Shown here one piece after another: positions 12,287 to 21,853 of a stretch of DNA of 32,000 bases. The notes beneath the pieces were generated by a model. That model ran no database searches. It was not told the DNA's origin and saw only the letters and a program-made list of their open reading frames with translations. Location: assembly GCA_030149205.1 (NCBI GenBank), contig JASBSB010000006.1:420001-452000 (forward strand). Reading direction: 5' to 3'. The translations under genes and the position numbers were made by a program. Within the stretch, counting starts at the first letter, position 1; each line of letters starts with the position of its first letter. The stretch is from Candidatus Heimdallarchaeota archaeon (GTDB taxonomy: Archaea; Asgardarchaeota; Heimdallarchaeia; Heimdallarchaeales; Kariarchaeaceae).

Positions 12287-12784
12287 TCACATGAATCTAG
12301 AGAGTAGCTTTACTTCTTGGTTATCATCATTATATTCTACTAACCCAGCATTTCTTAGGTCAAAAACCGCTTGCCTAACCTCCAATCCTCGTAGTCCAGA
12401 AGCTTTTGTTAGTTCATCTAATGTATAGATTTCTTTCTCCCCGTGAAGTATAAACAAGATACGTACATGAGACCCAGAATTGAATACTTCTCCTACTAGA
12501 ACTAAATAAATGTCCAGAAGTTTTAATGCATCTAAATCTCTTTTGTCTTCAGTTTCGAGGTCTTTCAATTTTGTCAATGTCTCTTCCATCTGTTGATTAA
12601 TCTTTTGAAATTTGGAGTTAAGGGTATCATTTTCAAATTGAAGTTCATCTATTTTTTTTTCGAGGGTCTGTACTTCAACCTTATGTGACTTTTTAAGTTC
12701 TGTCATCTCGTTATCAATCTCCACCCAGACTTGATTTAACTGGTTTATTAATCCAGAAATTTGACTTTGTCGTGTTTCACTCAT
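12287..12784 (-). CDS. Coiled-coil plus C-terminal winged-helix protein
   Basis: Residues ~5-85 show E/K/Q/L heptad character; C-terminal VRILFILHGE...TLDELTKASGL...VRQAVFDLRNAGLVEY...VKL has wHTH spacing. ATG at 12784 preferred over TTG at 12787. Confidence 0.8.
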   Translation of the reverse strand: MSETRQSQISGLINQLNQVWVEIDNEMTELKKSHKVEVQTLEKKIDELQFENDTLNSKFQKINQQMEETLTKLKDLETEDKRDLDALKLLDIYLVLVGEVFNSGSHVRILFILHGEKEIYTLDELTKASGLRGLEVRQAVFDLRNAGLVEYNDDNQEVKLLSRFM

Positions 12785-12872
12785 CAAACAGTCTTAATTA
12801 CACCCTATATTATTTTTGTTTATAATTGATAAATTATTTTATTAAATTTATGAAAATATGCACGAGCCGGGA

Positions 12873-12891
12873 ATTTCGTAGTTTACACTAT
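12873..12891 (-). other. 19-nt tRNA intron at non-canonical position 59/60 (strict BHB)
   Basis: T54-T55-C56-G57 pairs with intron CGAA; 3-nt bulges A-A-A and A-T-T; outer helix TAGT/ACTA closes a GTAA loop. Confidence 0.92.
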
Positions 12892-12912
12892 TTCGAACCC
12901 GGGCCCCCTGCG

Positions 12913-12924
12913 TTCTGCAAAAAT
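12913..12924 (-). other. 12-nt tRNA intron at canonical position 37/38 (relaxed bulge-helix-loop motif)
   Basis: Exon C32-T33-G34-C35 pairs with intron GCAG; the 3' bulge is A-A-C38; the rest of the intron (TTTTT) cannot form an outer helix. Confidence 0.9.
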
Positions 12925-13063
12925 TGGCAGGCAGGCATACTACCACTATACTACTCGTGCCCTGCTTCCGTAGAAGCAATTTTAATCTAAATGGAATTAA
13001 CTTAAATTTTGTTATGTTGTACATTGATATTATCTAGTAATTCATTGTATGAAAAAAGGATAA

Positions 13064-13741
13064 CTAACCCAATCTACCGTTTGAAATTCTTACAACTCTA
13101 TCTGCATACCGTCTCAGTTCTTCATTATGTGTTGCAATAATGACAGCAGTTCCCAATCTGCATACCTTTTTCAATAGTCGCATAATTGTCTCTCCAGTTT
13201 CTTGATCCAAATTTCCTGTTGGTTCATCTGCGAATATTATCTTTGGTTCCTTCACTAGGGCTCTGGCAATTGCCACCCTTTGCTGTTCACCACCAGAAAG
13301 TTCCTTTGGAAAATGATTTTCCCTGTCATATAAATCCAATTGTCGTAAGGTTTTGAGAGATTTTGTTCGGAGCTCTCCACTATCCAATTTTGATGGGTAC
13401 ATGGGACTCTCAACATTCTCTACTGCAGTCATATGATCAATTAATTCCCAGCTTTGAAACACATAGCCAACTTCGTCCCTTCTGAAGGTAGTTAGCTCTT
13501 TATCAGTCAAAGTCGTAATTTCTTTGTCTTCATATTTAATTGACCCAGATGTGGGCTTTTCAAGTCCAGATAGAAGATGAAGCAATGTGGATTTCCCAGA
13601 TCCAGAGGGTCCAAAAATTAGAACCATCTCAGCAGGGTCAATCTTAAAGTTAACTTCAGTCAGGGCATGCACCACTTCGGCTCGTCCTCTTTTGTAGGTC
13701 ATTGAAAGGTTTTCCGCCTTTAATATATTTGTTAAACTCAT
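13064..13741 (-). CDS. ABC transporter ATP-binding protein, LolD/MacB/SalX family
   Basis: [53 protein letters not shown]. Confidence 0.95.
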
Positions 13742-13747
13742 TTTTTA

Positions 13748-14986
13748 TCACCTATCCCTAAAGAGGTTCATTGGAGAAACTCTCAATGCCTTCCATGTAA
13801 CGATCAGTATTCCAATGAGTGTAAATAAGACCACTATCAAGAATGATGCTAGTATCGATTCCCATCTTAATAAAGCTGATGTTCTGAAATTCCCAAGATC
13901 CTGAAGGCTTAAATAAATTAAGATCCCATTAACACTTAATATACCGACTATAAAACCAGAAAGAGATGTTGTGAGTATCTCACCAATAAGTGCTAATCGA
14001 ATTGCATTATTTGAATAACCCATAGCTTTGAGAATCGCAACCTCTCTGCTTCTAAGTCTGGAAAGCAGATATGAATACATTGCAACGAGCACAGCACCTC
14101 CAATTAAACCGTAGAAGAAGGAAGAAAGATCTAGATTACTCTTTTCCTTCTTTTCTCTAATGGTGGACTGGGCTACTTGAACCCACTTCCCGAATTGGCT
14201 TGGTTGATTTAGAATAGTATCTGTTATCTTCTGTTTCAAATCAGCAACATGATCATAATCAGATGAGCTTGGAATTATTGGATTTTGGGTTTTCACAGTA
14301 ATTGATGCAGAATACACATACACATTTGATGCACTTATACCGAAGGCTGCTATTAGCTTATCAAACCCAAAATCAGGTACAAACACCCATAAACTGTTCC
14401 TTTTACCACTTCCAAACTTAGCCCCATCAAATAGGCCAGAAACTGTAAAGGACACTTTAGGAACTGCATTTGTTGCATTGGGGGGGGTGTCCCAAACGCT
14501 AAATTTACTTCCTACTGCCACAGTGGAAGAGATAAAGACACCATTAGACTGTTGAACCTGAACATCCCCATATGGGATCAACGCTTGGTTGGTTGATGAT
14601 GGAAAACTACCATCAATCACCAGAGAAGGATTAATCCAGGGATTTAACCAAGGGTTACTTAAATTCAGACTGAAAATTCTAAGATTGTTCCCAACATCGA
14701 AATATCTATACAAGACTGCATCCTGAATTGAGTAATTTACTTTCAGTACCCTAACTGCATCGATTAATTTGTTCCCTTCTGCTTGAGTCACTCCATAGGT
14801 TGTTGATTGTGTTAGGAACATACCTCTCTGATCCAAATAATTTGTGGTAACGTAAGAATCTAAGGTATTCACAAAAAAGGCCACAAACGTAGCAGTGAGA
14901 CCAAACATAAGTAGAAAAACAATAAATCTTCTTTTATTTCGTGTGGTGAACCTGATAGATCGACGAAATACTCTGAGATTTCCCAT
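13748..14986 (-). CDS. FtsX-like (MacB/LolE-type) ABC transporter permease
   Basis: N-terminal TM, large extracytoplasmic domain, then RSREVAILKAMGYS...IGE followed by three TM helices and a terminal SPMNLFR; immediately upstream of the cognate ATPase. Confidence 0.88.
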   Translation of the reverse strand: MGNLRVFRRSIRFTTRNKRRFIVFLLMFGLTATFVAFFVNTLDSYVTTNYLDQRGMFLTQSTTYGVTQAEGNKLIDAVRVLKVNYSIQDAVLYRYFDVGNNLRIFSLNLSNPWLNPWINPSLVIDGSFPSSTNQALIPYGDVQVQQSNGVFISSTVAVGSKFSVWDTPPNATNAVPKVSFTVSGLFDGAKFGSGKRNSLWVFVPDFGFDKLIAAFGISASNVYVYSASITVKTQNPIIPSSSDYDHVADLKQKITDTILNQPSQFGKWVQVAQSTIREKKEKSNLDLSSFFYGLIGGAVLVAMYSYLLSRLRSREVAILKAMGYSNNAIRLALIGEILTTSLSGFIVGILSVNGILIYLSLQDLGNFRTSALLRWESILASFLIVVLFTLIGILIVTWKALRVSPMNLFRDR

Positions 14987-15158
14987 CTTATACTCAAAAT
15001 TGATAAGAAGTTAAAAAGTTTTAACTTTCCATTTAAAAAAAAACATAGTTTATACGCATTGCTTACCCTTTTATTACATTATCTTCCATAAGGTTAAACG
15101 AAATAATTCAAATATAATGTAACAAATTTTTACGAAATCTGATAATTTCTTAGCATAA

Positions 15159-15166
15159 TTTATATA
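15159..15166 (+). promoter_or_regulatory. Candidate archaeal TATA box for the oxidase operon
   Basis: TTTATATA about 55 bp upstream of the ATG at 15221; RBS AAGGTG at 15207-15212. Confidence 0.5.
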
Positions 15167-15220
15167 GTTAAAATAAAACTTCAAATTAGCTTTAAAAAAA
15201 ATAGCAAAGGTGTCAGAATT

Positions 15221-15949
15221 ATGTTTATAAAAAACGTAGTAAAATTTCTATTGGGATTAACTATATTTGCAGTTATATCCCTATTGTATGCATTGTTTAG
15301 TTCTCCTGGTGGATTTAAAATGGGGGGAATGCAGACCAGTACGTTTGACCTTTCAAAATGGTCTATTGTTCAATTCAGCTTATTTTCAATACAATTCGGT
15401 CTTGTTGTATTCTTAGTGATTTTATATTTTGGGTTTGCACGAAAATCTCTTGAAAATGAAGTCCCAGAAGAGACCCACAAAAAGATCGAAGTGTTTGAGA
15501 AAAAATATTTTTGGATCGCAATAAGCATTTTATTAGTTATGCTGCTTCTAACTGTCGCTATACCTCTCACGACAAATCAACTTGCACAGGCCAGAGATAA
15601 TAGAACCAGAATTAGCTCATCGGATACTCTAATATACGCTCATGCGTTTCAGTTTGGGTTTGAATTTAAGACCAATGGAACTGGTTCAGTAACGAATAAC
15701 ACATGGATGCCCACATTGACATTAATTAAGGATAAACTCTATGAATTTGTTCTGTTTACCTCAGATACAACCCACGGGTTTGGAGTGTACTCACCACAGA
15801 ACTTGCTTGTAGACCAATCACAAATTGTCCCTGGATATAACACGCACTTCCTGATGAAATTTACTGAGACAGGAGTATATACAATTAGATGTATGGAATA
15901 TTGTGGAGCAGGGCATCAAATTATGGAAACCACAATCACAGTGGCTTGA
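15221..15949 (+). CDS. cbaB: Heme-copper oxidase subunit II (CuA domain, three predicted TM helices, no cytochrome c fusion)
   Basis: CuA ligands present: SDTTHGF and RCMEYCGAGHQIM; cupredoxin start AHAFQFGF; directly upstream of subunit I. Confidence 0.9.
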   Translation: MFIKNVVKFLLGLTIFAVISLLYALFSSPGGFKMGGMQTSTFDLSKWSIVQFSLFSIQFGLVVFLVILYFGFARKSLENEVPEETHKKIEVFEKKYFWIAISILLVMLLLTVAIPLTTNQLAQARDNRTRISSSDTLIYAHAFQFGFEFKTNGTGSVTNNTWMPTLTLIKDKLYEFVLFTSDTTHGFGVYSPQNLLVDQSQIVPGYNTHFLMKFTETGVYTIRCMEYCGAGHQIMETTITVA

Positions 15950-15959
15950 GGTGAACAAT

Positions 15960-17453
15960 ATGGAAGAAAAAGATTTTATTAAAGAAGCAAAAGAATTATC
16001 AATTGGATATTTTATCACGGGTATTCTTGTACTCGGTTTAGCAGTACTCTTAGGATTTATCGCTAGAACATCTCAAAGTGGGATGTTTGTGATTTCCCCT
16101 AGCATGTTCTATACCCTAATTACTTTACATGGGATGCTGGCCTTCGTAGGATGGGGTACCTTCGTGGCGATGGGCTTAACTTGGTATACACTTGTCAAGG
16201 CATTAAATGCACCACTCCATAGTGTTAAACTAGTAAGATTTATTTATTGGAATTTTATGACTGGAGCAGCCATGTTGATAATCGGATCATTTTGGGGTGG
16301 TTTTGCAGGATCTTGGGTATTTTTATATCCTATTACGTTCCATGGAAATTGGCCTGCATGGGCATCATTTTTCTGGACCTTAGGTGTGATATTAGCTGGA
16401 GTTAGCATTATACTATATGGGTTAGAAATTCTACTCACAATCAGATCGGCTGGTTATTCACTTTGGGATTCATGGGGTTTTGAGTCATGGAAGAAGTCTG
16501 ATGTCAACGATTACACTTTCCCAATTGCAGCTGTTCCATTATCAATCATTGGGATTGGTATGATAATTGCAACTATTCCTTTTGCATATCTCTTGATCTA
16601 TCAATTACTTGAGATTTTAGGAGTTGTTGGAACTATGGACGCTCTTTTAGCAAAGAATTTGCTATGGTGGTTCGGTCATCCAGTTGTCTATCTTATTCTG
16701 TTCCCAGTCGTGGGTATGATATATCAAATGGTTCTTGATAACACAGGAAGAAAAAGACTAATTGGAGAAAGACTGACCAAATTAGGATGGTCTATTGCTT
16801 TCATTGTTCAAAATATTGTTGGCGCTCATCATATTTACATGGATCTTGTTCAATCAGCTTGGATTCCAATTTTCAGTCAAGTTTCAACATATGTTATTGT
16901 TTTACCATCTGTTGTATCCTTGTATGCTATTGTGGGTACGATCTTAATAGCTAAAATTGAATGGAACCTGATCACAAAATATTTGGTAACAACTATTATT
17001 TTCTGGTTTTTAGCAGGTATCTCTGGAATTATCCAAGCAACAATGGCATTTAATGTTTTTGTTCATAACTCGCTTTACATTGTTGCTCATTTCCACACAA
17101 TGGCACTCTTAGGATTGAGTTCAATGCTCTTCGCAACTGGCTTTTATATAGTTCAAGATTATACTGGAGTTGACATCCAAAACAACAGATGGGCAAATGT
17201 CGGCTTTTGGAGTATTATGATTGGAGCGTTGAGTTTTACCAGTATGTGGTTTATCCAAGGAATGTGGGGTGGAATCAGAAGAGATGCCTTGTCAACACCT
17301 ACAAACTTGACCATTCTAACTGACTTAAGCATTCCATTTATGTTATTAACCGTTTTTGGAATACTTGTAAATGTATACCTAGCTATTAGACCATTTGCAA
17401 ATCTTAACCAAATAGATGTGTATCATGAAGAAAAAAACCCCTCAACTAATTAG
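15960..17453 (+). CDS. cbaA: Heme-copper oxygen reductase subunit I, B-family (ba3-like)
   Basis: All six His ligands: TLHGML, WWFGHPVVY (His plus cross-link Tyr, no Glu of the A1 GHPEVY motif), GAHHIY, AHFH; GGIRR pair. Start at 15960 follows RBS GAGGTGA; the 15903 ATG overlaps subunit II. Confidence 0.9.
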   Translation: MEEKDFIKEAKELSIGYFITGILVLGLAVLLGFIARTSQSGMFVISPSMFYTLITLHGMLAFVGWGTFVAMGLTWYTLVKALNAPLHSVKLVRFIYWNFMTGAAMLIIGSFWGGFAGSWVFLYPITFHGNWPAWASFFWTLGVILAGVSIILYGLEILLTIRSAGYSLWDSWGFESWKKSDVNDYTFPIAAVPLSIIGIGMIIATIPFAYLLIYQLLEILGVVGTMDALLAKNLLWWFGHPVVYLILFPVVGMIYQMVLDNTGRKRLIGERLTKLGWSIAFIVQNIVGAHHIYMDLVQSAWIPIFSQVSTYVIVLPSVVSLYAIVGTILIAKIEWNLITKYLVTTIIFWFLAGISGIIQATMAFNVFVHNSLYIVAHFHTMALLGLSSMLFATGFYIVQDYTGVDIQNNRWANVGFWSIMIGALSFTSMWFIQGMWGGIRRDALSTPTNLTILTDLSIPFMLLTVFGILVNVYLAIRPFANLNQIDVYHEEKNPSTN

Positions 17454-17501
17454 ATCAAATTAAGACTTCAAAGCTTATGTTTAGTTGGATATGTAAATGC
17501 A

Positions 17502-18521
17502 TTATTTTATAATCAAGGTAATATGCTTCTCTATGAGGTATTTTTTGGCTCGATCTGTTATTTGAGAATTTGAAATAGACAGTGATTTTAAACCTGAGAG
17601 AACTTCAAAGTCTTCTTGATCTAATTTTCTATCAAAGGGGTTATTTGACAATAACAGTACATGTAGATTACTTAATGATGAAAGCCTCTCCACTAACTGC
17701 TTTGTTTGAGAAATCTGATTTGACTCAAGAGAAAGTAATTCTAAGTTCGATAATAAACTGAAATCACTAGGGAGCTGCTGAAGGTAATTGTTGTTTAAAT
17801 GTACCATCAATAAATTTCTTAATTGACAAATACTTTGAGGTAATTCAAAAAGTCGATTATAAGAGATTGCTAAAGCCTTGAGTTTAATTAACTCTTTAAT
17901 TTTGGTCGGTAATATTGTAATATTGTTTCTGCTTAAAATTAATGTTTCCAGCGAGTGAAATTTGAACAGTTCAGGAGGAATTTCTTTTAACTTAAAATTC
18001 ATTAAATTCAAAAACTTTTGGTCACCATGAGCAAAATTCTCACCTAGAGGATATTTTCTGTTTCCTTTCTTTATTTTTACTGTGATTTCATCAGAATTGT
18101 GATGTTGAGTAGAAATGGGATCAATTACTATTAACTTTTTACCATTCAATGTTTTTGGGAGATGGAAATATTGAATCTGATCTACGATGATTTGCTTTAG
18201 CTTAGTAAGGTTGCTAAGGTCAGGGACAAACACAAATTTATTGTGATTAATTTTTAGTATCTCTAATTTTTTAAGTAGAAGAACATTTTCAGGGAAAGTT
18301 TCAAGATTGTTATGTGATAGGTCGATCTCAACCAAGTTTTTATAATACTGGATTTCGGGTGGGAGGGATTTAAGTTTGTTTCCCGATACCAAGAGAACCT
18401 TTAATTTTTCCAATAAGGTTGTTGAAAGAGAGAATTCAGTCAAGTTCTGATTTTCTAAATTTAGTTCTTCATTTGAAATTAAAATGATGTTTTCTTCTTC
18501 TATAAGTTTTATTGTCAACAA
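17502..18521 (-). CDS. Leucine-rich repeat protein (two LRR blocks separated by a linker)
   Basis: Repeated LxxLxLxxNxLxxLP units (e.g. LVEIDLSHNNLETFP, LETLILSRNNITILP, LKALAISYNRLFELP); TTG start. Confidence 0.9.
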   Translation of the reverse strand: MLTIKLIEEENIILISNEELNLENQNLTEFSLSTTLLEKLKVLLVSGNKLKSLPPEIQYYKNLVEIDLSHNNLETFPENVLLLKKLEILKINHNKFVFVPDLSNLTKLKQIIVDQIQYFHLPKTLNGKKLIVIDPISTQHHNSDEITVKIKKGNRKYPLGENFAHGDQKFLNLMNFKLKEIPPELFKFHSLETLILSRNNITILPTKIKELIKLKALAISYNRLFELPQSICQLRNLLMVHLNNNYLQQLPSDFSLLSNLELLSLESNQISQTKQLVERLSSLSNLHVLLLSNNPFDRKLDQEDFEVLSGLKSLSISNSQITDRAKKYLIEKHITLIIK

Positions 18522-18666
18522 TACCTATACTAAGAGTAGTTTTATAGATTTTAAGTCTTCTCATGAAAATACTACATTTGGGTAATATGGGGCTTCTAAC
18601 TCAACTATTCAATCAATCAAATAATTTAAAGATTATGCAAATATGTTTTTTATGCGTAAGCCGGGA

Positions 18667-18687
18667 AATTCGGAAATTTGAATTTCT
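18667..18687 (-). other. 21-nt tRNA intron at 59/60 (strict BHB)
   Basis: TTCG pairs with intron CGAA; bulges A-T-A and T-T-T; outer helix GAAAT/ATTTC around a TCAA loop. Confidence 0.92.
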
Positions 18688-18708
18688 ATCGAACCCGGAA
18701 CTAGAGCT

Positions 18709-18725
18709 TCCTTTGAAATAATTCT
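18709..18725 (-). other. 17-nt tRNA intron at 37/38 (BHB with one mismatch in the central helix)
   Basis: C32-T33-T34 pair with intron AAG, C35 faces A; outer helix GAA/TTC around a TTAT loop; bulges C-A-A and G-A-A. Confidence 0.85.
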
Positions 18726-18832
18726 TGGAAGGCTCCCATGATGGCCATTTCACCACTTACGCAAGAATGGCTAAATTAAGTCTAATGTTAACCTTTTTTA
18801 ATTTTTCATTAGCATTCAGGTAAAGATTAAAT

Positions 18833-20470
18833 TTATGTGAAAACACTGTTTGTTAATCTACCAGAAGCAGCTCCATAGGCTTTTTCACTCATATTTAACT
18901 TTTTAACAAATAATTCTTTTGTATTAGGTTGCAAAAAGATATCCCTCATCTGTATAGTTTGTTCAACGAGGTTAGTTAAGCCTTCAACCGCATTTTTAAT
19001 AACAAGATCATTTTCTAGAGCATCTGGTAACCAATCAAAAAAAGATGTAGCCTTAGGAGAAACCGGGAGATAGGAAATAGACTTATGCTTCCCAAAAATT
19101 CCAGACTTATCCAGTTTTTTTAGATTTGTTGGTAAGACAACAGGAGGGATCGTAATTGTGGCTAAATCATTTCCATTGTTATTTACGTATTGAAAGAGGT
19201 AAAACGGGATATAAAGGGTTAGAAAATCTCCAGGCGACCTAGTTTTAAGCTCTTCTGATGCAAGGGTTGGAGCACCTTCCATACTAATTTTCTTCTCCAA
19301 TTCTTTCTTCCACTTTAGTTTTTTATCTGAATATTCATCCAATTTTGTTTTTGAAGCCGTCACTTTTGATTCTAGATCTGCTAACTCAGTTTGACTTCTC
19401 GTCAAGCCTTGTTCATACTCCATTTTTATTGCTTCAATGTCTTGTTGAGCCTTTTTTTCAAGGTCTTGTTTTTCCATCAAAAAATCGGCATCCAAATCAG
19501 CAGAAGTATTTTGAGTTGAAGTTACATTGCGTCTTGCAGTGTGAAGATCATTAAAAAATACATCAGTTGCATCTTTGAGTTCCTCAATGAGTTTTTGTGC
19601 TTGGAGTATTGGATCATTCTTGGTATCCTTCTCTAAAGCTTCAAATGCACCTAAGAGTTTTACGATCTCTTTTCCATCTTTAACTATATTTCTTCCAACA
19701 ATCTTTTGAAAGGTTGCAAGGTTTGACTGTTTCTTTTTATCTAGATCTTTTTCGAGTACACTTATTGACTTTTCAAGGTCTGACTGTCTGCTTTTGATTT
19801 TGGAGGCCTCAGTAGCTTTTATGGTTTTTAATTCCTGTGTCCAAAAAGCCATTTTCTCTTTAAGAGTGCTCTCTTGATCTGAAACATTTTTTTGAAATGC
19901 CTCTTCAATAATTGCAAGCCTAGAGTCAATTTCTTTACCAAGGGTTGCTTGATCCAAAATTGTGGTGTTAATTGCCTTTATGTCTGCTTTTATCTCATTA
20001 AGTGGTCTTCGTGAGGGCAAGGGAGTAAATTCCCAATTACCTGAAACTCTTGGTGCTGCAAGGAGTGCATTTAATATTGTTAACTCCTCTCTACTCACTC
20101 CACCTTTTAACACCTCATAATCGACCTTAAGATTCATGATTTTCTTGTAAATCTGATTAAGCTCAAGGTTTTTTTGGTTATCTACAAATGTTCTTAGCTC
20201 TTGGTTGGAGACCAGATTTGTCGTTGGAATTCTAATTTCTCGGTTACTTGAAGGGTTAATAGCCAAATATCCACCTGATCTGGTTTGAGAAAGAAATATA
20301 GGAATTGAAGTTTTAGAGATCCGTGTAACTTTTTCGTATTTCTTAATTGATTTGTCTCCATAAAAATCAGTTGCTAGAATTAACATACCAACCGTCTCTG
20401 CAACCTGATCCTCCTGGTTTGAGAGTTGTGACTGATGAAATTTTACTTTGATGTCCTGTGAGTCTGCCAT
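18833..20470 (-). CDS. Long coiled-coil protein with globular N- and C-terminal domains
   Basis: 545 aa; residues ~155-400 are K/E/L/Q/D-rich with heptad character; no Walker motifs and no TM segment. Confidence 0.85.
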   Translation of the reverse strand: MADSQDIKVKFHQSQLSNQEDQVAETVGMLILATDFYGDKSIKKYEKVTRISKTSIPIFLSQTRSGGYLAINPSSNREIRIPTTNLVSNQELRTFVDNQKNLELNQIYKKIMNLKVDYEVLKGGVSREELTILNALLAAPRVSGNWEFTPLPSRRPLNEIKADIKAINTTILDQATLGKEIDSRLAIIEEAFQKNVSDQESTLKEKMAFWTQELKTIKATEASKIKSRQSDLEKSISVLEKDLDKKKQSNLATFQKIVGRNIVKDGKEIVKLLGAFEALEKDTKNDPILQAQKLIEELKDATDVFFNDLHTARRNVTSTQNTSADLDADFLMEKQDLEKKAQQDIEAIKMEYEQGLTRSQTELADLESKVTASKTKLDEYSDKKLKWKKELEKKISMEGAPTLASEELKTRSPGDFLTLYIPFYLFQYVNNNGNDLATITIPPVVLPTNLKKLDKSGIFGKHKSISYLPVSPKATSFFDWLPDALENDLVIKNAVEGLTNLVEQTIQMRDIFLQPNTKELFVKKLNMSEKAYGAASGRLTNSVFT

Positions 20471-20701: not shown

Positions 20702-21853
20702 ATGATAATGATCAATCAAATTAAACTACCTCATCCAATGAAGAGGTTTACCTCTCTTTCTGAAATTGAGGACAGTGAATTGATTGACAAATTCCCTGCA
20801 TTATTGAGAGAGCTTGAAAGTCTAAAGTTGCTTGTTGCAGAATTAAGGCTCTCAGGACAATCTAATAAACCAAGGAACAAAATCAACAAAAACTTAAGTG
20901 ATAAGATCTTTTATAACTTTGGAATTTCTCAAGGTCATATAATTGAACTTAATATCAATTTTGATTTTGATTATATCCCCGACCACCTTTGGAATCTTGA
21001 ACATCTTGAGAAATTAACCTTACAAGGAGTCTGTGGGAATTCTTGTGGAAATTTTGCACGGTTAAAAAATCTCAAAAGTCTTGGCGTATTCTTTACCAAC
21101 AAGGATAGGAACCACCGTAGAATTGTATTTCCCGAAAACTTACAGAATTTATTGATGGTAAATGTAGACGTCAGAGAAAATCCACCAGAATTTAAGAACC
21201 TGAATAGTTTATCCAAGATCATTTTCAGAAAAGTTATTGGAGTTGAGAATATATTAAACCTAGGTGAGCTAACAAACTTATCTCATTTAGACATAGGGGA
21301 AAACAACGTTGAAAACATACCTGAGTCAGTTTTCAATAGTTTTAAAAATTTAAAGGTTCTAAAAGCCGATACAAACAGCATTAAACATATCTCTGAAAAT
21401 ATAAAAAATCTAGAGAAATTGAGAGTTTTAGATTTGGATAACAATTTGTTCACTCATTTTCCAAGAGAAATTACCAAATTAAGTAACCTAAGAGAATTAT
21501 ACATTTCCAACAATGCCATTCAACATATTCCAAGAAGCATTGAAAGATTAAAACGACTGGAAATTTTAAATTTAGCAGACAACAAAATTAGAAGTTTACC
21601 TGATGAGTTTGTTGAATTGATAGGTCTAAAAAGGGTGTTTCTGCAAAATAATAAATTGGTTGAGCTTCCAGAGTTAGTTGGAAAGCTCACAAACCTTGAA
21701 CGTGCTTATTTCAACTCAAACACTATTACCCAAATTCCCAAATCACTGTTCAAAATTCCAAACCTAAAAATATTAAACATCTCATCTAACAGACTGGTTT
21801 ATTCAAGAGAAGAAGTTAAATCTTTCCCCAAGCATATTTATATCACTTTTTAA
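20702..21853 (+). CDS. Leucine-rich repeat protein
   Basis: C-terminal half is a regular 23-aa LRR array (LRVLDLDNNLFTHFPREITKLSNLRELYISNNAIQHIPRSIERLKRLEILNLADNKIRSLP...); N-terminal cap and degenerate repeats. Confidence 0.93.
   Translation: MIMINQIKLPHPMKRFTSLSEIEDSELIDKFPALLRELESLKLLVAELRLSGQSNKPRNKINKNLSDKIFYNFGISQGHIIELNINFDFDYIPDHLWNLEHLEKLTLQGVCGNSCGNFARLKNLKSLGVFFTNKDRNHRRIVFPENLQNLLMVNVDVRENPPEFKNLNSLSKIIFRKVIGVENILNLGELTNLSHLDIGENNVENIPESVFNSFKNLKVLKADTNSIKHISENIKNLEKLRVLDLDNNLFTHFPREITKLSNLRELYISNNAIQHIPRSIERLKRLEILNLADNKIRSLPDEFVELIGLKRVFLQNNKLVELPELVGKLTNLERAYFNSNTITQIPKSLFKIPNLKILNISSNRLVYSREEVKSFPKHIYITF

Follow-up and report, generated by a model that had tools for sequence, protein, structure and literature searches.

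The stretch of DNA considered here, referred to as the window, comprises 32,000 nucleotides of a Candidatus Heimdallarchaeota archaeon (contig JASBSB010000006.1, positions 420,001 to 452,000) and carries, on its minus strand, two genes for glycine tRNA isoacceptors, tRNA-Gly(GCC) and tRNA-Gly(TCC), each of which is interrupted in the anticodon loop between positions 37 and 38 as well as in the T-loop between positions 59 and 60. The genome to which the window belongs (designated G000) is a metagenome assembly of 3.31 Mb in 12 contigs, with an estimated completeness of 93.5%. At 59/60, the introns of both genes form strict bulge-helix-bulge (BHB) motifs, while the motifs at 37/38 are relaxed. 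The components of the two genes are listed below in window coordinates, together with the evidence that delimits them.

12859-12960, minus strand: tRNA-Gly(GCC) gene, 102-nt precursor giving a 71-nt mature tRNA, CCA not encoded (ARAGORN after excisions and orthologue alignment)
12925-12960, minus strand: tRNA-Gly(GCC) exon 1, tRNA positions 1-37 (ARAGORN and orthologue alignment)
12913-12924, minus strand: tRNA-Gly(GCC) intron 1, 12 nt at 37/38, relaxed motif of the hBH form (minimum free energy fold, product length and G002 orthologue)
12892-12912, minus strand: tRNA-Gly(GCC) exon 2, tRNA positions 38-59 (ARAGORN and orthologue alignment)
12873-12891, minus strand: tRNA-Gly(GCC) intron 2, 19 nt at 59/60, strict BHB (minimum free energy fold and G006 orthologue)
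12859-12872, minus strand: tRNA-Gly(GCC) exon 3, tRNA positions 60-73 (ARAGORN and orthologue alignment)
12963-12978, minus strand: 5' leader hairpin of tRNA-Gly(GCC), TGCTTC-tacg-GAAGCA, 6 bp, 2 nt before +1
18653-18762, minus strand: tRNA-Gly(TCC) gene, 110-nt precursor giving a 72-nt mature tRNA, CCA not encoded (ARAGORN after excisions and orthologue alignment)
18726-18762, minus strand: tRNA-Gly(TCC) exon 1, tRNA positions 1-37 (ARAGORN and orthologue alignment)
18709-18725, minus strand: tRNA-Gly(TCC) intron 1, 17 nt at 37/38, relaxed BHB (fold comparison and intron-less orthologues)
18688-18708, minus strand: tRNA-Gly(TCC) exon 2, tRNA positions 38-59 (ARAGORN and orthologue alignment)
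18667-18687, minus strand: tRNA-Gly(TCC) intron 2, 21 nt at 59/60, strict BHB (minimum free energy fold, intron-less orthologues and a contig from a second study)
18653-18666, minus strand: tRNA-Gly(TCC) exon 3, tRNA positions 60-73 (ARAGORN and orthologue alignment)

ARAGORN with default settings and the Rfam models at their gathering scores found no tRNA anywhere in the 32-kb window, and an Infernal search with RF00005 at E<=10 yielded only a partial match of 14.7 bits on the tRNA-Gly(GCC) gene. After in-silico removal of 12 and 19 nt from tRNA-Gly(GCC) and of 17 and 21 nt from tRNA-Gly(TCC), ARAGORN called a 71-nt tRNA-Gly(GCC) and a 72-nt tRNA-Gly(TCC), respectively, both with regular cloverleaves. 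When the T-loop insert alone was removed, ARAGORN -i detected both genes, each with an anticodon-loop intron; when the T-loop insert was kept, it detected neither. The original prediction for this DNA had given coordinates, strand, anticodons, intron lengths, helices and 4-nt loops for both genes, all of which proved correct, and its statement that two excisions are needed per gene agrees with the ARAGORN calls and the fold. The further claim that annotation would miss such genes was borne out for ARAGORN and for Rfam, and holds for these two tools only. No match to a self-splicing group I or group II intron was found; the inserts measure only 12 to 21 nt as compared to a core of hundreds of nucleotides, and the Rfam scan was blank.

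The T-loop inserts of both genes form the complete hBHBh' arrangement, in which the T-stem CCGGG/CCCGG represents the outer helix, a central helix of 4 bp arises from the pairing of T54-T55-C56-G57 with CGAA close to the 3' end of the intron, and two 3-nt bulges are made up of A58, N59 and the first intron base and of the last two intron bases and T60, respectively. With arrows marking the predicted exon-intron boundaries, the order of elements is T-stem, TTCG, AA↓A, TAGT-GTAA-ACTA, CGAA, AT↓T, T-stem in tRNA-Gly(GCC) and T-stem, TTCG, AT↓A, GAAAT-TCAA-ATTTC, CGAA, TT↓T, T-stem in tRNA-Gly(TCC); the predicted spliced T-loops, TTCGAAT and TTCGATT, respectively, are 7 nt long. In both genes, this BHB is the unconstrained minimum free energy (MFE) fold of the isolated T-arm, and it is also contained in the MFE folds of the whole precursors (-37.1 and -36.4 kcal/mol, with z scores of -2.5 and -3.6 against shuffled sequences).

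With regard to the anticodon-loop introns, the tRNA-Gly(GCC) intron combines a central helix CTGC/GCAG with bulges CA↓A and AA↓C; central helix and 3' bulge AAC are perfect, the inner helix is replaced by an 8-nt loop, the same structure is given by the unconstrained MFE fold, and the 12-nt register is the sole one that yields a 71-nt Gly tRNA. In the tRNA-Gly(TCC) intron, a central helix CTTC/AAAG with one C.A mismatch is flanked by bulges CA↓A and GA↓A and followed by an inner helix GAA/TTC, and cuts at 36/37 or 38/39 would lead to an identical product.

Orthologues from related genomes were parsed and aligned as a test that does not use the BHB motif; three of these genomes (G001, G002 and G003) belong to the same genus as G000. 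For tRNA-Gly(TCC), intron-less 72-nt genes are present in G001, G003 and G010, the gaps in the alignment fall at both predicted introns, and the anticodon arm of G001, G002 and G003 is identical to the product predicted by excision of 17 nt. For tRNA-Gly(GCC), the G006 orthologue is without the T-loop intron and has a T-arm exactly as predicted after splicing, in the G002 orthologue, which is without the 37/38 intron, the loop reads CTGCCAC as predicted, and the G009 orthologue has three introns, located at approximately 20/21, at 37/38 and at 59/60. Exons of both Gly genes are conserved relative to their orthologues and introns are not. As the alignment agrees with the predicted gaps and with the predicted spliced arms, the intron boundaries are supported independently of the BHB rule.

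The two genes are part of a larger set. In G000 as a whole, ARAGORN -i together with Infernal identified only 22-23 tRNA genes, and no gene for a Gly, Ala, Asp, Glu, Gln, Asn, Leu or Trp tRNA was among them. A scan modelled on SPLITS, in which BHB motifs were enumerated and spliced out before ARAGORN was run again, combined with a relaxed pass specific for the T-loop, identified 24 further tRNA genes, including those for all three Gly isoacceptors (i.e., also Gly-CCC); all 24 (of approximately 45 tRNA genes in total) carry a 59/60 intron of one design, and 12 of them bear an anticodon-loop intron as well. Overall, about 36 of the approximately 45 genes contain at least one intron, for an average of about 1.1 introns per gene, figures obtained with a scan that could miss genes with several (two or more) non-canonical introns outside the T-loop. 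The extensive non-canonical intron system that had been proposed for this lineage is thus apparent. The 59/60 register is constant in 24/24 genes and leaves a 7-nt T-loop; the pairing of the intron with positions 54-56 is invariant, position 57 forms A:T in 15 genes, G:C in seven and G.A in two, and the first pairs of the inner helix are of at least four types. No family resemblance among the introns of G000 was found, as 0/276 hairpin pairs exceeded the shuffle null (99.9th percentile), and this result, along with the MFE folds, upholds the earlier description of the T-loop introns as strict BHB motifs with conserved structure and divergent sequence. In a strict-BHB scan of all positions in G000, which would overlook genes with two or more non-canonical introns outside the T-loop, no convincing non-canonical intron was found outside 59/60; the hits located elsewhere (Ile-GAT with 23/101 nt, SeC, and Thr-TGT with 96 nt) look spurious. 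An intron-less Gly gene, which the original prediction had named, for Gly(GCC) and Gly(TCC), as part of the evidence that would speak against it, was not found in the 93.5%-complete assembly, nor was any Gly gene beyond the three isoacceptors, and the anticodon arms and T-arms predicted for the spliced forms of the two genes do not recur there as exact matches. CCA is encoded by 0/45 tRNA genes.

As a separate observation, perfect leader hairpins (stem of at least 5 bp, located no more than 24 nt before the mature 5' end) precede 18 of 45 G000 tRNA genes (40%), against frequencies of 8% in control upstream windows and 9% in shuffled sequences (Fisher p ~2e-5). Fourteen of these 18 hairpins end 0-5 nt before +1. 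tRNA-Gly(GCC) has such a hairpin and tRNA-Gly(TCC) does not; in the congeners, hairpins were found for 3 of 19 genes, which represents no clear enrichment.

A sequence pattern specific for BHB introns in GGG/CCC T-stems was used to follow the 59/60 introns across 201 genomes of the phylum with completeness of at least 80%. The pattern matched 21 sites in G000 versus 0 in a reversed control, and hence reflects more than chance, and at least one match was present in 153 of the 201 genomes. G000 showed the highest number of matches in the sample, followed by genomes with 18, 15 and 14. Within the genus, G002 had 12 matches and G001 and G003 had four each; the 59/60 intron is found in the Arg-TCG, His and Trp genes of G001 and G003 and in Gly, Leu, Asp, Ser, Thr and Arg genes of G002. 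The T-loop introns have a median length of 20.5 nt in G000 versus approximately 30 nt in the congeners. The anticodon-loop introns of G000 are unusually short too, many being 10-14 nt long. Many 59/60 introns of 29-31 nt, in genus g1 as well as in other genera, display an apical loop motif near YTGYGG (e.g., CTGCGG or TTGTGG), which is mostly missing from the short introns of G000.

Genes for the proteins that would be needed to process these precursors are present in G000. A homologue of the splicing endonuclease EndA (locus L001, 1135-1785) contains both Pfam EndA domains and the catalytic Tyr, His and Lys, and aligns over 153 residues with the catalytic subunit of A. pernix (3P1Z_B; E=3e-31), the crenarchaea-specific loop (CSL) being spanned without a gap and K72 lying opposite K44, the lysine responsible for broad specificity; it thus shares triad and loop lysine with the alpha subunit of the A. 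pernix (alpha-beta)2 enzyme (3P1Z/3AJV; Hirata 2011; Kaneta 2018). A second paralogue (locus L002, 1378-1998, minus strand) aligns over its full length to M. jannaschii EndA, retains Tyr and Lys, has Ser at the position of the catalytic His, and is probably a structural beta subunit, although it is closer to the EndA of M. jannaschii and M. kandleri than to any solved crenarchaeal beta subunit. G000 also contains a homologue of the ligase RtcB (555 bits) and an archaeal RNase P RNA (140 bits). Judged by homology, the genome appears to encode both RtcB and an EndA belonging to a type for which tolerance of non-canonical sites is established, in line with the expectation, put forward along with the two genes, of a tolerant EndA: an alpha subunit of crenarchaeal type with the specificity-loop lysine is present. 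Finally, a true actin (445 bits) identifies the host as an Asgard archaeon, as had been proposed.

We consider it very probable that both loci are functional, single-copy genes for tRNA-Gly(GCC) and tRNA-Gly(UCC), and that each precursor contains two BHB introns removed by protein enzymes. Under this model, each gene would be transcribed as a precursor with two BHB introns, in which the near-universal T54-T55-C56-R57 would pair with a YGAA tract near the 3' end of the T-loop intron to form a 4-bp central helix, with the T-stem as outer helix and a short intron hairpin as inner helix. An alpha/beta-type EndA with a broad-specificity L1/CSL loop would cut after the second base of each bulge, and RtcB would join the exons to restore the normal 7-nt T-loop, TTCGAAT or TTCGATT; the 12- and 17-nt anticodon-loop introns would be removed likewise, through relaxed BHB motifs. 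It seems a reasonable inference that pseudouridine 55 and m1A58 must come after splicing.

Several observations weigh against this model. In 20 of the 24 T-arms (the two genes in the window not among them), a structure other than the BHB has the lowest energy, the BHB mostly lying approximately 2 kcal/mol above the MFE, and the assignment of EndA to the (alpha-beta)2 type is by homology alone. In addition, the BHB at 37/38 of tRNA-Gly(TCC) is approximately 10 kcal/mol less stable than a competing extended TTCC/GGAA helix, and one base upstream lies a "decoy" perfect BHB, use of which would excise 19 nt and give a defective tRNA. This anticodon-loop structure is the weakest point of the two-intron model. 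The 19-nt alternative was rejected, as it would yield a tRNA of 70 nt that has a C33 "Glu" loop and is without a match among the orthologues.

Why the T-loop introns persist is a question separate from whether they are spliced. Most likely, they are tolerated insertions, which persist because the invariant T-loop provides a ready-made half-BHB in every tRNA. A protection hypothesis, according to which tRNA introns guard against the integrases of viruses and mobile elements, has reportedly been advanced by Randau and Soll. Selection for T-loop introns that interrupt the conserved 3' half, the part of tRNA genes used by integrases as att site, would fit their presence in 24 of approximately 45 genes at one site only and the highest count among the 201 sampled genomes; however, the congeners G001 and G003 do well with an intron-less Gly-TCC gene, intron content differs widely within the genus (21, 12, 4 and 4 matches), and a 2026 preprint on a 90-genome Asgard census did not find intron gains to be linked to mobile elements (Goswami et al., bioRxiv 10.64898/2026.10.13.758758). 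We thus regard such selection as an unlikely reason for the persistence of the introns.

A reading of the loci as pseudogenes in decay, or as tRNA-like sequences whose inserts are never removed, would explain why neither ARAGORN nor Rfam recognizes them but is very improbable: no other Gly(GCC) or Gly(UCC) gene was found in the assembly, their cloverleaves are intact and their BHB geometry is exact, the same design recurs in 24 genes, including many isoacceptors that are otherwise missing, and sequence conservation is confined to the exons. Assembly or sequencing artefacts, conceivable in a metagenome assembly of 12 contigs, can be practically dismissed, as the region has approximately 79x coverage in the source run (contigs of 59 kb and 150 kb), an independent metagenome study produced a contig that spans 18436-18900 (and hence tRNA-Gly(TCC) with both introns) with eight substitutions and no gaps, and the architecture recurs in 24 G000 genes and in 153/201 genomes of the phylum.

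Interruption of Asgard tRNA genes by multiple introns is already known, and functional tRNA-Gly genes spliced by protein enzymes, the reading preferred here for both loci, are new and well-supported members of a described class rather than a new phenomenon. The novelty implied by the original prediction does not hold, and its statement that such introns are documented mainly in Thermoproteales is outdated, given the Asgard publications. Position 59/60 is among the non-canonical archaeal intron sites listed by Yoshihisa (2014, PMC4090602). Kaneta (2018, PMC5829648) described an Asgard (alpha-beta)2 EndA with an L1 loop and incomplete tRNA sets that hint at undetected disrupted genes, and Valentin-Alvarado et al. 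(2024, PMC11291895) reported introns, many of them non-canonical and multiple, in 92-95% of the tRNA genes of three complete Asgard genomes. In the census by Goswami et al. (10.64898/2026.10.13.758758), called introns were concentrated at 37/38 and in the T-arm, BHB enrichment was strongest in the T-arm, gains were repeated and recent, most genomes had two EndA paralogues, and families shared across isotypes made up 1.5% of introns in the focal lineages.

G000 shares with these published systems (PMC11291895; 10.64898/2026.10.13.758758) the phylum, the interruption of most tRNA genes, the occurrence of two or more introns in many of them, the 37/38 and T-arm sites and the two EndA paralogues, but differs in having about 1.1 introns per gene as compared to 2.2 in the published focal families, essentially 59/60 alone as compared to many non-canonical sites, and very short introns. 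Introns of Crenarchaeota, in particular Thermoproteales (PMC4090602), show the same motif, the 59/60 site, the combination with a canonical intron and an EndA of the CSL/L1 type; by contrast, they belong to another phylum, occupy many positions and form clear families across tRNAs, whereas G000 shows no families and its congener G002 does. Three details go beyond the published picture, namely the rank of G000 at the top of 201 genomes, the variation in intron content within one genus, and the intron copying suggested by G002.

In G002, the T-loop introns of Gly-CCC and Arg-TCG are identical at 29/30 positions (97%), and each shares 83-87% identity with the Gly-GCC intron; the introns of Leu-CAG, Leu-TAA and Asp share 83-93% mutual identity, with 90% between Asp and Leu-TAA. 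The bodies of the tRNA genes that share intron families (loci L006, L010 and L020-L029) are 44-68% identical, and the T-stems of Asp and Leu differ. This pattern suggests intron-specific copying between unrelated tRNA genes, with the qualification that the evidence comes from one fragmented metagenome-assembled genome, a relative of the window's genome, and represents a lead. Similarity between the introns of G000 and G002 was sought in orthologous genes and not found. One possible scenario, which we put forward tentatively and do not favour, is that the 59/60 introns of this genus spread by intron-only copying, for which the universal T-loop would be a landing site that needs no co-adaptation, and that G000 represents an end state of minimal hairpins of 17-21 nt without family resemblance. 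If true, this would represent intron transposition in Asgard archaea similar to that of Thermoproteales, a process not found in the lineages on which the 2026 census focused.

Three protein-coding genes lie beside or between the two tRNA genes, at 15903-17453 (plus strand), 17502-18521 (minus strand) and 20702-21853 (plus strand), and encode a homologue of the haem-copper oxidase subunit I COX1 (208 bits) and two leucine-rich-repeat proteins; for a sediment-derived Asgard genome, the oxidase subunit is noteworthy. An open reading frame of 166 amino acids (12287-12787, minus strand), located immediately downstream of tRNA-Gly(GCC), matches Sec10_N, an exocyst component, exactly at the Pfam cut-off (27.4 bits) and TFIIE alpha weakly; its product is probably a coiled-coil or winged-helix protein.

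About half of the tRNA set of G000, including every Gly tRNA, is invisible to ARAGORN and the Rfam tRNA model, and a pipeline without BHB-aware calling of archaeal introns would give the impression that much of the translation apparatus of this organism is missing. The two Gly genes add a well-delimited, orthologue-validated case of heavily interrupted Asgard tRNA genes with an extreme focus on one non-canonical site, 59/60; the half-BHB that the T-loop supplies in identical form in every tRNA offers a simple reason why this site is favoured. Finally, the contrast within the genus, between short and unrelated introns in G000, families of approximately 30 nt in G002 and only four pattern matches each in G001 and G003, provides a tractable system for studying how introns arrive and decay, a question left by the 2026 census.

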